A DNA stretch of 64,000 nucleotides, taken from IMG/VR virus record IMGVR_UViG_3300030055_000003. One strand, 5' to 3'. A model generated the notes under the pieces. That model ran no database searches. It saw only the letters and a list, made by a program, of their open reading frames with translations, and was not told the DNA's origin. Position numbers and translations under genes: made by a program. Within the stretch, counting starts at the first letter, position 1; each line of letters opens with the position of its first letter. The DNA is from a virus (Duplodnaviria; Caudoviricetes). Below, piece by piece: positions 56,821 through 63,998 of the stretch.

Positions 56821-57021
56821 TTTATATTCCTCCTCACTCTTCTTAAAATCTCAATTTATTTAGTTATATTTCTATTAATTTATTGACTACCATACTATTT
56901 TTAATTCTTCTTGGATTTCTTGGTCAATGTTATTTATAGTAATATATACTTTAAATAAGCCACTTAACACAATCAATCCAAATGTAAACATTATTAATTT
57001 TAACATACTTTTATCCTCCTC

Positions 57022-57768: not shown

Positions 57769-59364
57769 TTAAATATGTATTGATCTATTATCATATTGAA
57801 AATGCAATCCCTTGTATTCCTGTCCTGTATTGCAAGCATGAGTTATTCCTTTTCTATAAAGTTTTATTCCAAATTCTTTTTCACTATTTGTATAACATTC
57901 ATTTATTGATGTAAATTCTTTATTATACTCTATATTTATAATTGATTTTTTACTAGAATCTCTTATAAATTTCTTATATTCTATTAATCCCTCATCTTCC
58001 GCTTGTTTTAAATAATCTCCTATTACTGTATTATCTAAATTAAGTAGTCTACCTATTTCAGAAGCATTATGTATTCCATTATTCCATAATTCAATTGCAT
58101 TAATTACATTTTTATCATGAATTTCTACTGCTGATATATAATTGCATAGATTATATTCTCTTGCCCTTTTTAAGTACCTCTTAACAGTTTTAAAATCTAT
58201 ATCCATTATTTTAGCAATCTCCATATGTCCTACTCCTTGATTATAATATTCACAAGCTTTAACTAAATACGAACTTAAAGATTCTTGTTCACATAAATTC
58301 CAATTAATTTTAGATATATCAAATAGTTTATTAATTTTTTCATTGTTTAATATATTATTTTTTATGTATTCAAATTTACTATACCTACAGTCAATTACTA
58401 TGTAATTTTCTTCTTTTATATTATTACTTAAAGCTAGTTTTTCTTTTAATTTATCATTTTCAGACTCTTCGTAATAACTTCTTCTAGAAAAACTACATTC
58501 TTCATAATGCTGAAGTCCATTTGTTTCTATCACAATGTTATTATGTTCTATATAAAAATCATATTCTTTGTTACCACATAAAGACTCTATTTCTGATAAT
58601 ACATTTTTAGACCAATCAAAATGTTTATGTCTTTTTATTTGTAAATTTAATTGTTTAAGTAGATTATATGTAAATTTTTCACCATAACTAAATCCGTCAG
58701 AACAAACTTGACAACAAATATCTTTTTCTCGATATAATGTAGATATTGCCATATTATCTCTTGGAACTTTACAAATCGGACAATGTAATAATCCTTTGTC
58801 TTGGCTTCCAAATGTTCTTGATTCTGCATCTTTAGTATTTTTAAAAAACTTAACCATCCACGGGTCTGTATCAGCGATTGTATTAATTCCTAAAACTGGT
58901 ACTTTATTAGAGCAACATCCACAACCTTGTTTCTTTTTCAAATTTCCCTCATTTATTCTTCCATTTTCCCAACCACATTCTAAGCATTCAAATATATATT
59001 CTTTTGTATTATCATTTTTATTTCTTGATTGTTCTTTAATCTTTATTTTTCCAGTAGATACTTCGATAATATCTCCTACATTGTAATAATGTTTACGTGT
59101 ATTTATTCCTAATAATTCACCTAATTGGCAATTCTGAAAATTACCTGTCCATATGTAAAATATATCTTTATTTAAATATTTTAAACCTAATATAGTTAGA
59201 CTATTTTCTCTTTTTACTTCTACAATTTCAACCCAACCTTCTTTATCATAATAAATAAATTTAACTTTATGACTTTTACATTCAAACCAATTTATTAAAC
59301 TATTGTTATTCTTTTTTCTAGGTAAATTTTCTAAAAATACTTTTCTAATTTTATTTTCTTTCAT
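57769..59364 (-). CDS. Free-standing Vsr/EDxHD-like endonuclease with zinc ribbons, HTH and NUMOD1-like tail; paralog of 15691-17157
   Basis: RKVFLENLP...INW, CxxC repeats, YDFYI...IETNGLQHY, IVIDC. Confidence 0.65.
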   Translation of the reverse strand: MKENKIRKVFLENLPRKKNNNSLINWFECKSHKVKFIYYDKEGWVEIVEVKRENSLTILGLKYLNKDIFYIWTGNFQNCQLGELLGINTRKHYYNVGDIIEVSTGKIKIKEQSRNKNDNTKEYIFECLECGWENGRINEGNLKKKQGCGCCSNKVPVLGINTIADTDPWMVKFFKNTKDAESRTFGSQDKGLLHCPICKVPRDNMAISTLYREKDICCQVCSDGFSYGEKFTYNLLKQLNLQIKRHKHFDWSKNVLSEIESLCGNKEYDFYIEHNNIVIETNGLQHYEECSFSRRSYYEESENDKLKEKLALSNNIKEENYIVIDCRYSKFEYIKNNILNNEKINKLFDISKINWNLCEQESLSSYLVKACEYYNQGVGHMEIAKIMDIDFKTVKRYLKRAREYNLCNYISAVEIHDKNVINAIELWNNGIHNASEIGRLLNLDNTVIGDYLKQAEDEGLIEYKKFIRDSSKKSIINIEYNKEFTSINECYTNSEKEFGIKLYRKGITHACNTGQEYKGLHFQYDNRSIHI

Positions 59365-59404: not shown

Positions 59405-59439
59405 GAACACAAACCAAGATTACTCCTAGTTTGTGTCTT
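59405..59439 (-). terminator. Terminator closing the MazF-peptide operon
   Basis: AGACACAAACUAGG-AGUAAU-CUUGGUUUGUGUUCU then UUGU; G-U pairs on the minus strand. Confidence 0.6.
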
Positions 59440-59469: not shown

Positions 59470-59574
59470 CTAGCCTCTACCAGAGCTAATTGCGTAACAA
59501 CTTATTTGACTAGCCATTGTAGCGATTGCTATTACTGCCATTAAAACAAATACTTTTACTTTTGATTTATTCAT
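59470..59574 (-). CDS. 34-aa secreted signalling-peptide precursor, AimP/Phr-like (absent from ORF track)
   Basis: SD AAGGAGGTGA; MNKSKVKVFVLMAVIAIATMASQISCYAISSGRG* with basic N-region, hydrophobic core and short polar tail. Confidence 0.75.
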   Translation of the reverse strand: MNKSKVKVFVLMAVIAIATMASQISCYAISSGRG

Positions 59575-59668: not shown

Positions 59669-60325
59669 TTAGCATGTACCATATTTTACTTTTATTTGTT
59701 GTTGCAATAACAATATTTTCTCACACAATATAATATTTATATTGTTTACCTCCTTTATTAATTCTTGAAAAGCCTCATCATATTGTGATGAATTGTTATG
59801 TATTAGCATGTCCTCTGCAACCACAAGGACATTACTAAAATTTTTTTCTAATAAACTTAAATTTAGTTTAGCAATAAGCTTTTCTAAATAACCTTCAACA
59901 TTATATGGATCACATCTTTTATAAGTTTCATAACAAAATTTATAAATTTTTATTAATTCTTCATTTGATAATTCTTTTTTATAGCAATGAACATAATTAT
60001 TTAAAGCTTTTGCATAGTCTTGTTTATGTCTTTGTGTGGTTAAATAATTAGGATAGTTCTCTAATTTTTCTTTAAGTTCTTTTGAATATAATCTAGCCGA
60101 GGTTATACTACCATTTAAATTTTGTTCAATACATTTTATTTCAGCATTTGTTAAATCACTTAATAATAATCTTATTTCATCTATATCTTTTAATGAATCT
60201 ATTTCTTGAAACCTCATTTTTTTTAGCATATTCCTAGCTTTTTCCACTCCATTTATCTCATTATCCCATTTATGATATACATCACTTTCTATCCTATCTG
60301 TTACGCTTCTTCTCTTATTTATCAT
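59669..60325 (-). CDS. Predicted all-helical (TPR-like) protein; candidate peptide receptor or antitoxin
   Basis: Amphipathic helices such as DYAKALNNYVHCY; lies between MazF and the peptide gene. Confidence 0.45.
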   Translation of the reverse strand: MINKRRSVTDRIESDVYHKWDNEINGVEKARNMLKKMRFQEIDSLKDIDEIRLLLSDLTNAEIKCIEQNLNGSITSARLYSKELKEKLENYPNYLTTQRHKQDYAKALNNYVHCYKKELSNEELIKIYKFCYETYKRCDPYNVEGYLEKLIAKLNLSLLEKNFSNVLVVAEDMLIHNNSSQYDEAFQELIKEVNNINIILCEKILLLQQQIKVKYGTC

Positions 60326-60350: not shown

Positions 60351-61154
60351 TTATATTGCTATCACTTCTTTTTCTTTCTCACATTGCATATAAAATTCCC
60401 TGTAATTTAGATTATTATCTTCACAATATATTTGTAATTCATATAATAAATCACTTCTTTCTTTTCGCAGAAGGTCGATTAAACTTTCTGTTTTGGTTTC
60501 TATAATTAATTCTTCACAATTCTTAATAGCATTTAATCGTTTGTTTATTTTATTTTGCATATATCTAGGCAGTTTTTCAAGTGGAGTCTTTTCTTGTAAT
60601 TCATTCATTGAAATATCTTTTGCTATTTTAATTTTCTTTTTTGTTATATCATCAAGTACTCCAACTCTGCTTTTAATTCTTCTTTTATCTAAAGTTCTTA
60701 CTTGCTCTAGCATAACTATTGAATCTTTAGGTAATCCAAATTGACCTGCTGAAATCTCGACATGCGTTGGAAGTTTACTTTTAGTTTGTTGGCTTGTAAC
60801 AAATGCTACTATAACAGTAGGAGAATACTTATTTCCAATTTCGTTCTGTATACAAATAGCGAATCTGTCATTATTTTGTTCGCTCCATCGCCCCCCATCT
60901 AAATTGACATATAATACCTCACCCCATTCAATATCCTTTAAATCTATATTATTATTTATTTTATTATCAGCAATATTTCTATTGCTATGTACATTGTTAA
61001 CTTCTATTTTTACTTGTTTAATTTGTTTATTAATATCTAGGTCTTTAACTTCTATCTTTGCTTCAATTAACTTATTATCATTCTTTAATTCCTCTTTATC
61101 CATTTCCAACTTAATCATCATTAGTTGTTCTCTTAACTCTAACATTACAACCAC
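60351..61154 (-). CDS. mazF: PemK/MazF-family endoribonuclease with N- and C-terminal extensions
   Basis: WGEVLYVNL...SEQ...R...IQNEIGNKYSPTVIVA.VT...KLPTHVEI...DSIVMLEQVRTLDK.R; likely ATG at 61145. Confidence 0.9.
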   Translation of the reverse strand: MVVMLELREQLMMIKLEMDKEELKNDNKLIEAKIEVKDLDINKQIKQVKIEVNNVHSNRNIADNKINNNIDLKDIEWGEVLYVNLDGGRWSEQNNDRFAICIQNEIGNKYSPTVIVAFVTSQQTKSKLPTHVEISAGQFGLPKDSIVMLEQVRTLDKRRIKSRVGVLDDITKKKIKIAKDISMNELQEKTPLEKLPRYMQNKINKRLNAIKNCEELIIETKTESLIDLLRKERSDLLYELQIYCEDNNLNYREFYMQCEKEKEVIAI

Positions 61155-61226: not shown

Positions 61227-61434
61227 ATGTTACATCTTATTTCCAAACTTGTCAATACTTTTTTTAAAATATTTATTTATTTCTTTTAATTTATTGACTT
61301 GTTCCTTATGAATATTATCCTACCACCATGTGGTAACTCTGTCAATACTTTTTTAAATTTATTTTTGTTCTTTTATTAATTTGTTTGTATCTCTTCTATG
61401 ACCTAATAATATACCCTACGGAATATAATGTCAA
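61227..61434 (-). promoter_or_regulatory. Three tandem sigma-A promoters
   Basis: TTGACA at 61250, 61340 and 61429, each 17 nt from TAACAT, TAGGAT or TATTAT and preceded by AAAAGT(A/G). Confidence 0.75.
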
Positions 61435-61525: not shown

Positions 61526-61548
61526 AGGTTGGATGCTTGCTCCAACCT
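61526..61548 (-). terminator. Intrinsic terminator after the MrpR-like gene
   Basis: AGGTTGGA-GCAAGCA-TCCAACCT followed by TTTCTTTTTG. Confidence 0.8.
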
Positions 61549-62656
61549 AGCTCTCTATCTTTTCTGAATCAATACTTACTTCTAATTCAGATGATAATTC
61601 AATTTCTATCTCTTTATTTTCAACTTTAGAAATATTTTTATTAGTTCTCTTTTTTGTTTTTATATCTAATCCTGATATTAATTGAAAATCTCTTCGGACT
61701 CTTGAGTTTTTATTTACTGTAAACGTATTGTCATATATTTCATTTACATCATCTATATCAATATTTGTAACCATATCATTTTGTTTATATTTTTCAAATA
61801 ATAAATCAAATCTTCTATTCATATTTAAATTAGGTACACTTATTCTATTAATTCCATTACTTTTTGAAAGATTTCCTAGTTTATTATATACATCTTCGGC
61901 ACTCATATGTTGCCAATCAACTCTTTCAGTTGTTTTAATAATAAATCCTATATCTAAATAATTAATGTCTTCCATTTCTGTTTCTTTTTTATTAACTCTT
62001 TTCAAACTTGCTTTTGATTGTTTTCTTGGTTTAGTAAAACAATTTTTAGCTGAATCTATAAATCTTATAAATGAATTATCAATCGGCAATTCCAACAAAC
62101 CTTTTTCTTCTGAATAAACATTTAAAATTTTCTTTTCTCTATCTACATCTTCCCATTTTATAGTTCCCACATTATCTATAGGAACTCCATATCTTAACAA
62201 TGTCAACATTGCCCTGTCTACATCTGTACAATCTAATCCATATATAAATTCATTAAATTCTTGAAGTGTCTTGTACTGTTGTTTCTTAGCTTCATCACTA
62301 ACATCAAATAAACCAGTTGTATCAATTGAATCACATGGATTCCCTACATAGTTATAACCTTTTTTATATGCCCAACCTATATAATTTGATATTGTAGTAA
62401 ATAACATACTTTTTGTTGTCATTGAAGTTGTTGCAGTAGTTTTTATTGCTTGAATTATCTCTTGTTTAGTCCAATTATACAATTCTTTCTCTTTGTTTAA
62501 TTCTAAGAAATTGACTCTAGTATTTAACAAAATCCAGTAAGTTCTTTTTGTAGTATCTGAATATCTATCTTCGACTTCTTCTAACCAATCAGCTTTTCTT
62601 TTTAGATATTCATTTAAACCATCATATTTTACATCTTCATCTAAGAATTCATACAT
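61547..62656 (-). CDS. MrpR/YopR-like phage repressor (catalytically degenerate tyrosine-recombinase fold)
   Basis: E....KELYNW...EI, LLRYGV, IKWEDVD; no intact HxxR; follows a YopQ-like gene. Confidence 0.65.
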   Translation of the reverse strand: MYEFLDEDVKYDGLNEYLKRKADWLEEVEDRYSDTTKRTYWILLNTRVNFLELNKEKELYNWTKQEIIQAIKTTATTSMTTKSMLFTTISNYIGWAYKKGYNYVGNPCDSIDTTGLFDVSDEAKKQQYKTLQEFNEFIYGLDCTDVDRAMLTLLRYGVPIDNVGTIKWEDVDREKKILNVYSEEKGLLELPIDNSFIRFIDSAKNCFTKPRKQSKASLKRVNKKETEMEDINYLDIGFIIKTTERVDWQHMSAEDVYNKLGNLSKSNGINRISVPNLNMNRRFDLLFEKYKQNDMVTNIDIDDVNEIYDNTFTVNKNSRVRRDFQLISGLDIKTKKRTNKNISKVENKEIEIELSSELEVSIDSEKIES

Positions 62657-62657
62657 T

Positions 62658-63998
62658 CTACATTACCTCCTTAGCTATCTTTTCAAAATATTCATATATG
62701 TGTTTTACATTACAATCTTTTATATCTAATTTAAATTTTTTATTTAAATCTTCATTAATTTTTATTAGCTTATCAGCCACATCTCCAGCTAATAATCTTG
62801 AATTTTCATTGTTTTTTAATACGTTCGCTATTGCAAGATAACCAACAAACATATTAGGTTTTAATAAAAAGTTATGTTCTTTCATTACTTCTATATCGTC
62901 ACCAAAGTATTGAGACGATAAATATTCAATTAACATATCTATAATATTAGATATTTTTCTTGCTTCTCTTTCAGATGTTACGTCATTATCTATTTTTTCA
63001 ATATCCATAAACTCTACACTATCATTAAGAACACTTAGATAAGTTAATGATTTTTTTACTTTACATTCGCTAATAATATTTGCAACCTTATTTTTTAATG
63101 TTTTTGAATTAGTAGTTACATATTGTATAAATCTATTTTCTGGTGTATCTTTTAAAGTTTTTGCATAGGTTTTATCTGTTGAATTTTGTTCAAAAGTATC
63201 GGAAGTATATTGTTTTGCTTCACTTGGACTCATTAAAAAGAAAAATACACCTAATCCTTCATCTTCAACTTCTGTGTCTTCAAAATAAGCGTCCGCTAAA
63301 GCAGTAGATCTATGATTTCCATCATTTATTATCATTGGAGTATAATTAATTGAATTACTATCAAAATTTGGAGTAACTTCTAGTCTTCCAAACTTCTTCT
63401 TATACTCAGGAATAAATTTAACTTGTGGTTCTTTATTAGGCATATCTAAAACAGTAAAAGTTATAGCTGTTGGTTTTATATTGTGTTTTTTAAATCTTTG
63501 AATTAAAGAATTAATTCCATCTTTATTTACATTGATTTTTTCAATCTCTTCACCATTTGGAAGTTTTACAATTTTTCTAGCTCTTTGAATCCCTTCAAAA
63601 TTTCCCAACTTATTATTTTCTTTTATTTGCGCAAGTTGTTTAGCTTTGATGAAAAACCAATAAGCATTATTTCCAACCTTTTGACAATCTTCAAATACAA
63701 TTGTTTTTAATTCTTCTTGCTTTTCAGCTTCTTGATATACCTCATAATTCGTTAATACTGTACCTGTAAAATAATCTGTTGGATTTATATTAACTCCTAA
63801 ATTCTTTTCATTAGCTTTTGCAAAATTAAAAATTGATTTTGATAAAGCTATTAATACATTTTCATTTTTTATTTCATGTACTGTTAGCCCTTTATTGAAT
63901 AGTAATGCTGGAATATCTAAATTTAATCCTTTAGCACTAAATTCTTTATTGATATCTTGTTGTAATCTCATATTCGCTATTTCATTTTGAATAACCAA
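62658..63998 (-). CDS. DndB/ParB-like (DGQHR-type) protein, YopQ-like (start may lie outside window)
   Basis: IINDGNHRSTAL; AITF; context upstream of the MrpR-like gene. Confidence 0.6.
   Translation of the reverse strand: MVIQNEIANMRLQQDINKEFSAKGLNLDIPALLFNKGLTVHEIKNENVLIALSKSIFNFAKANEKNLGVNINPTDYFTGTVLTNYEVYQEAEKQEELKTIVFEDCQKVGNNAYWFFIKAKQLAQIKENNKLGNFEGIQRARKIVKLPNGEEIEKINVNKDGINSLIQRFKKHNIKPTAITFTVLDMPNKEPQVKFIPEYKKKFGRLEVTPNFDSNSINYTPMIINDGNHRSTALADAYFEDTEVEDEGLGVFFFLMSPSEAKQYTSDTFEQNSTDKTYAKTLKDTPENRFIQYVTTNSKTLKNKVANIISECKVKKSLTYLSVLNDSVEFMDIEKIDNDVTSEREARKISNIIDMLIEYLSSQYFGDDIEVMKEHNFLLKPNMFVGYLAIANVLKNNENSRLLAGDVADKLIKINEDLNKKFKLDIKDCNVKHIYEYFEKIAKEVM

Follow-up and report, generated by a model that had tools for sequence, protein, structure and literature searches.

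The window analysed here is a 64,000-nucleotide stretch of an IMG/VR virus record (140,944 bp; CheckV completeness 57%). Its GC content is ~24%, and every gene in it lies on the minus strand; together with the size of the record and the presence of identical copies of the protein described below on contigs of up to 283 kb, this points to a large phage with a low-GC host. The gene of interest encodes 218 amino acids (aa; 59669..60325, -). It opens with an ATG placed 25 nt past the stop of a gene for a PemK/MazF-domain protein (60351..61154, -; hereafter mazF), and 94 nt separate its end from a 34-aa open reading frame (ORF) on the same strand (59470..59574, -). Because long open frames are rare at ~24% GC and full-length homologues at 25–70% identity share the start, we regard the 218-aa ORF, which a first-pass annotation of this DNA had picked out, as a real gene and not a chance frame.

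The three genes look like one operon, since terminator-like hairpins flank them and three promoter-like sites lie between the upstream hairpin and mazF. One hairpin, with a 14-bp stem and a T-run, stands just after the 34-aa ORF and would close the operon (59406..59437, -); the other follows an MrpR-like gene and splits a repressor gene pair from mazF (61526..61548, -). The three sigma-70-like promoters upstream of mazF (61227..61434, -) come from a consensus scan, score 10–11/12 each, and are pattern matches only. The repressor pair itself is of the SPbeta type, consisting of an MrpR/YopR-like gene of 369 aa (61547..62656, -; Pfam MrpR_N_CB; BLASTP to SPbeta YopR, E 7e-4; similarity to MrpR weak) and a YopQ-like gene of 446 aa (62658..63998, -; Pfam DndB; BLASTP to SPbeta YopQ, E 1e-8, full length). 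It precedes mazF wherever the contig extends far enough. On the far side of the operon the surroundings vary. The window carries there a gene for a 531-aa homing-endonuclease-like protein with HTH motifs (57769..59364, -; PHROG 4538/9084), as do the related loci L002, L016 and L018, and other genes replace it in L001, L011, L013, L014 and L020, so that this appears to be a variable insertion point. A few genes further downstream, several phages share an ORF of ~38–39 aa with a hydrophobic N-terminal half and a C-terminal EELKI(I/V) (window 56887..57006, -; L020:4795-4914; L017:4811-4927), which probably encodes a small membrane protein.

The 218-aa protein belongs to a small and divergent family. 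Four close relatives were found among 5.8 billion clusters, and an exhaustive phmmer search of 1.84 billion representatives yielded 25 family members at E≤1e-3; these ~25 representatives come only from metagenomic or viral contigs. A search without length limits gave no fused long form (e.g. with an HTH), as the true matches are all 169–229 aa long, the full-length ones about 200–229 aa; two long matches considered as fused forms (P0028 and P0029) were ruled out as low-complexity or unrelated proteins. The protein has no match in Pfam, PHROGs, NCBIfam or PADLOC. At E≤1, Pfam returned neither an HTH family nor a TPR family, the repeats being visible only in the predicted structure. No match was obtained by megablast of 7 kb against GenBank phages and PLSDB plasmids, by tblastn of the 218-aa protein against GenBank phages, or by tblastn of the MrpR-like protein against phages, and a scan of GTDB genome contigs with a family alignment returned no relative of the 218-aa protein. 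A search for related loci with the same alignment found two viral contigs.

The first-pass annotation had read the protein as a stack of amphipathic helices and had presumed a TPR fold; the AF2 model, built from a five-sequence alignment, indeed consists of ten helices predicted with high confidence (mean pLDDT 90.3, pTM 0.84). When this model was compared by VIA-align with 48,161 PDB representatives, the top matches were TPR proteins (Z 10–13.7), the best being a kinesin-light-chain-like TPR (4y6w; Z 13.7, 198 aa aligned). Peptide receptors were among them, namely RapI (4i1a, TPR domain residues 171–374; Z 11.7, 194 aa), NprR (4gpk; Z 10.1–11.5), PlcR (2qfc, residues 104–286 aligned to model residues 1–196; Z 11.2) and the Rap proteins of phi3T (8rsv; Z 11.2) and phi105 (8rte; Z 9.8); Z values below about 13 are, however, common among helical repeats, and these RRNPP matches are not set apart from kinesin-light-chain, LGN and NASP TPRs. 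No AimR chain was among the best 50 matches of either VIA-align list, which does not exclude that family. Dozens of TPR chains align at Z 10–12 and span residues 1–218, so that no spare N-terminal domain is left, and the earlier remark that no HTH is visible holds as far as these tools reach. Foldseek found nothing at E≤0.001 in either PDB or BFVD; its weak matches (E about 1e-2) are all TPR, designed or other helical-repeat proteins. We therefore consider the fold class established at the level of the predicted model as a TPR-like solenoid of five repeats that leaves no space for a further domain; neither a non-solenoid fold nor a match to an unrelated family was encountered. The comparison with AimR, Rap, PlcR and NprR that the annotation had proposed succeeded in part: RapI, NprR, PlcR and phage Rap were matched in structure by VIA-align, but sequence similarity was lacking, as was any Foldseek match at the threshold above. 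In particular, a profile of the 25-member family, searched against all PDB chain sequences (E≤10), retrieved no Rap, NprR, PlcR, PrgX, Rgg or AimR, and hhalign against SPbeta AimR gave a probability of 0.2%. In RRNPP receptors the concave TPR groove takes up the mature peptide, whose backbone is contacted by conserved Asn; near-invariant Asn residues in odd-numbered helices of the model (N155, and N109/N110 in closer relatives) are candidates for such a role.

Two independent sets of homologues, one of the TPR protein and one of the extended MazF, served to gather related loci, and 12 of these carry a TPR homologue. In 12/12 the order is extended mazF, TPR gene, and then an ORF of 28–38 aa with a strong Shine-Dalgarno sequence, and this holds down to 26% identity between the TPR proteins. 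The earlier placement of the gene in a receptor slot, directly upstream of a signal-peptide-like ORF, thus holds at all 12 loci. In the window, the 34-aa ORF has a near-perfect Shine-Dalgarno sequence and encodes a putative pre-peptide with a Lys-rich N-terminus, a hydrophobic run, the residues C-Y-A and a C-terminal hexapeptide, ISSGRG; it has no family in Pfam, PHROGs, NCBIfam or PADLOC. Its counterparts follow the same plan, with 2–5 Lys/Arg among residues 1–10, a hydrophobic stretch of 15–22 residues (by heuristic scoring), and A-x-A-like small residues at -3/-1 in 8/11 loci, beyond which lie exactly six residues. Across 11 loci the C-terminal motif can be written x-G-x-x-R-G; the tails of all 12 are ISSGRG (window and L001), IGSGRG, AGSGRG (two loci), TGSGRG, TGSSRG, TGSPRG, TGGPRG, GPGVRG, GTMGRG and TTNPWG. 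Judged by sequence, this layout is that of an arbitrium- or Phr-type pre-peptide. At one locus (L019:3881-4600) a run of N, that is, a masked stretch or assembly gap, breaks the TPR homologue in the ENA contig, and the downstream peptide ORF, ending AGSGRG, is intact.

The first gene of the operon encodes a MazF of 267 aa in which the MazF/PemK domain (residues 78–176; Pfam PF02452, E 1.3e-24; PHROG 1936) is extended at both ends. The C-terminal tail is modelled by AF2 as a confident helical hairpin (H194–216 and H220–243; pLDDT about 90), with a conserved linker before it and a disordered C-terminus after it; residues about 206–267 are encoded by 60351..60539 (-). The N-extension (residues 1–75) comes out as disordered in the prediction (residues 16–65 with pLDDT below 50), varies greatly in length among relatives, contains repeated Lys/Ile/Gln-rich words, and diverges independently of both core and tail. 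At the other end, the C-termini of extended MazFs (window 60351..60368, -) keep a hydrophobic x-(I/V)-A-(I/L/M) ending that is modelled as disordered; a free end of this sort is a typical type of TPR ligand and, as pure speculation, might compete with the hexapeptide.

MazE-type antitoxins combine an AbrB or RHH DNA-binding domain with a C-terminal toxin-binding segment and are usually encoded upstream of the toxin. The 218-aa protein has an all-TPR fold, is encoded downstream of the toxin and matches neither MazE nor RHH, and a search of the 141-kb record (57% complete) for a MazE-type (AbrB or RHH) antitoxin found none. Extended MazF can also occur on its own: in one lineage (L017:3001-4795, P0056 type, on a 222-kb contig) an extended MazF with a different tail ending is accompanied by neither a TPR gene nor a peptide gene, so that not all extended MazFs can depend on the TPR protein as an obligate antitoxin. 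The 250-aa gene that follows mazF at this locus was considered as a possible TPR homologue and proved to be unrelated to the family. In the literature we found no description of a TPR partner for MazF.

We then asked which parts of the operon diverge together, using Mantel tests on pairwise identity matrices from 11 related loci; the p-values given here ignore shared ancestry. The TPR protein co-varied strongly with the C-terminal tail of MazF (residues 206–267; r 0.82, p 0.0002), but with neither the nuclease core (r 0.07, not significant) nor the N-extension (r 0.05, not significant), and MazF core and tail were themselves uncorrelated (r -0.18). A second co-variation was found with the six C-terminal residues of the small ORF (r 0.62, p 0.0009) and with the four variable residues of the hexapeptide (r 0.54, p 0.0015), but not with the leader of the same ORF (r -0.04, not significant). 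The codons of the hexapeptide are separated from the TPR gene by the leader, so the hexapeptide correlation cannot be put down to linkage alone. Clades of the TPR protein likewise match peptide types, with xGSGRG in one, ISSGRG in another and TG(S/G)PRG in a third. Co-folding of the full-length MazF alignment with the TPR alignment scored 0.00, below the mark; this run had no controls and counts neither way.

A natural exchange between two loci bears on the same question. Compared with L018, the DNA of the window is 85–97% identical over the mazF core, falls to 45–70% identity from about 60560 to about 59600, that is, over the MazF tail and the TPR gene, and returns to 77–95% from the peptide gene onward. 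The upstream breakpoint lies not between genes but inside mazF, near 60560, at the core-to-tail boundary. The peptide gene stands outside the swapped cassette, and its predicted mature product differs by only one residue. As the swap leaves the peptide gene with the backbone, the specificity between receptor and peptide may be loose, and the primary specific partner of the TPR protein would be the MazF tail. The first-pass annotation had named MazF as the obvious partner; co-variation and joint exchange with the MazF tail now lend that partnership indirect support.

We reasoned from these observations that the 218-aa protein is, somewhat more probably than otherwise, a minimal, HTH-less TPR sensor or adaptor in an operon of tailed mazF, TPR gene and pre-peptide gene, with the tail of MazF as its protein partner. 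A good part of the same evidence would also suit another arrangement, in which the protein is a plain constitutive partner or antitoxin of MazF (type II-like, in reversed order) that binds the tail and neutralises or stabilises the toxin, while the small ORF encodes an unrelated secreted or membrane peptide. The 25-nt gap that couples mazF to the TPR gene, the strong co-variation and joint exchange of the TPR protein with the tail, the position of the peptide gene outside the cassette swapped between the window and L018, and the lack of a MazE-like gene in the record all speak for such a pair. We nevertheless judge this arrangement unlikely, because a peptide ORF with a conserved C-terminal motif accompanies the pair at 12/12 loci, because the TPR protein diverges in step with the final six residues of that ORF and not with its leader, a pattern for which linkage is insufficient, and because the L017 lineage keeps an extended MazF with no TPR gene at all.

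Rap-type receptors are known to act on diverse protein targets, and in all long contigs the YopQ/MrpR-like pair is the immediate upstream neighbour of the module. Both facts would be compatible with a receptor for the hexapeptide that has a different phage or host protein as its target, for example this repressor pair; the linkage to the MazF tail would then reflect only adjacency and recombination hotspots. What makes this very improbable in our view is the exchange described above: a breakpoint inside mazF, at the core-to-tail boundary, combined with independent evolution of core and tail, can hardly be accounted for unless tail and TPR gene have to move together. A structural or chaperone-like role outside signalling, for a helical-repeat protein that stands beside a small membrane protein or type I-toxin-like peptide, is similarly improbable, since strict three-gene synteny over deep divergence, two segment-specific co-variations and a small-ORF layout that fits a cleaved leader and not a membrane toxin with a charged tail all tell against it, even though the fold is a generic one, RRNPP receptors are not distinguished by their Z scores and no functional family is matched.

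Under the sensor/adaptor reading, the operon could work as follows. The small ORF would be exported by Sec, and cleavage of the signal-peptidase type would leave the C-terminal hexapeptide ISSGRG, as the architecture of the leader suggests. By analogy with arbitrium and Rap-Phr, the peptide would build up with the number of infections and then be re-imported. Inside the cell, the TPR protein would bind the helical hairpin at the C-terminus of the phage's MazF, a contact to which the co-variation and the exchange as a single cassette point, and the hexapeptide, lodged in the TPR groove, would alter this contact and thereby tune the RNase activity of MazF. The output would thus be by protein-protein contact, like that of Rap, and not transcriptional, like that of AimR. 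There is precedent in SPbeta-like phages for a peptide signal that acts through MazF, as in phi3T high peptide leads to active MazF and lysogeny (PMC10769878). Our guess as to the sign follows the phi3T AimX-MazF axis: the free TPR protein would restrain MazF, and the peptide would release it, so that lysogeny is favoured. In its boldest form, which we put forward tentatively and hold to be possible but doubtful, this amounts to a quorum-gated toxin switch, in which the mini-TPR protein is a direct, peptide-releasable inhibitor of MazF seated on the C-terminal hairpin, and the hexapeptide turns phage density into RNase activity and decides between lysis and lysogeny without a transcription factor; large clostridial phages of the SPbeta-like kind would then have a post-translational equivalent of arbitrium.

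If the sensor/adaptor reading is right, peptide communication among phages would be confined neither to AimR-type transcription factors nor to Bacillus, and a secreted hexapeptide would be linked straight to a toxin by a receptor whose short length and divergence put it beyond current detectors. It would also provide a compact three-gene model for a density signal that acts post-translationally on an RNase, and would suggest that the arbitrium-MazF link of phi3T is a recurrent design and not a peculiarity. The swappable cassette of MazF tail and TPR gene offers a natural set of specificity variants, and even on the more modest reading, that of a TPR partner for the MazF tail, the protein would be a new kind of MazF partner.

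How, then, does the operon stand relative to known systems? The RRNPP signature comprises adjacent genes for a receptor and a small propeptide, a Sec signal, a receptor of 250–500 aa and matches to TPR HMMs (PMC10075063). Here the TPR gene neighbours a small peptide ORF in 12/12 loci, and receptor and peptide have co-diversified, as judged by the correlation with the last six residues over 11 loci. The length of the protein (218 aa; about 200–229 aa in the family), however, falls below that range (PMC10075063), and it is matched by no TPR family of Pfam at E≤1. RRNPP_detector, which needs both 250–500 aa and TPR HMM matches, would therefore miss it. With no sequence signal and a length below the RRNPP range, membership of RRNPP or of AimR by descent is not established.

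In its proposed working the operon is most like Rap-Phr and arbitrium. In Rap-Phr, an HTH-less cytoplasmic TPR protein is encoded directly upstream of a small peptide gene with a Sec leader (here predicted), and output is by protein-protein contact (here proposed); the structural alignments to the TPR domain of RapI (Z 11.7) and to phage Rap (Z 9.8–11.2) agree with this, in a range of Z that many helical repeats share. Rap, however, is larger (about 360–380 aa), with at least seven TPRs behind an N-terminal three-helix bundle, whereas the present protein has 218 aa, five helix pairs and no additional domain and is not similar to it in sequence. Rap targets Spo0F or ComA, whereas the target proposed here is the tail of a toxin, and the mature peptide would differ in being the extreme C-terminus, right after the leader. 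PlcR-PapR and Rgg offer a five-repeat TPR domain of similar size with the peptide gene directly downstream, but those receptors carry an N-terminal HTH and are transcription factors, whereas the 218-aa protein has no HTH and no sequence similarity to them.

MazEF shares with the operon a PemK/MazF nuclease domain beside a small partner gene, and there is precedent for short peptides that affect MazF, as EDF peptides have been reported to modulate its activity (PMC3668371). The partner here is, however, downstream and TPR-like, MazF carries a dedicated C-terminal hairpin, and a MazE-type antitoxin is lacking; moreover, EDF is reported to act on MazF directly and not via a receptor (PMC3668371), whereas a receptor is proposed here.

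Finally, arbitrium is likewise phage-encoded; its receptor gene, too, precedes that of a pre-peptide which ends in a six-residue signal (here proposed), and its clade-2 peptides, xxxRGA (e.g. SASRGA and GMPRGA), resemble the xGxxRG tails of the present family. AimR, however, is a protein of 386 aa in which an HTH is joined to nine TPRs, and it controls aimX through transcription or antitermination. The protein described here lacks a DNA-binding domain and has five helix pairs, and no aimX-like gene lies before the terminator of the three-gene operon. MazF is a downstream effector of arbitrium in phi3T (PMC10769878), whereas here MazF is phage-encoded and physically linked to its proposed sensor. 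Both systems adjoin a YopQ/MrpR-type repressor pair; aimR-aimP of SPbeta is on the opposite side of the yopMNOPQR operon, whereas the module described here lies downstream of the pair.
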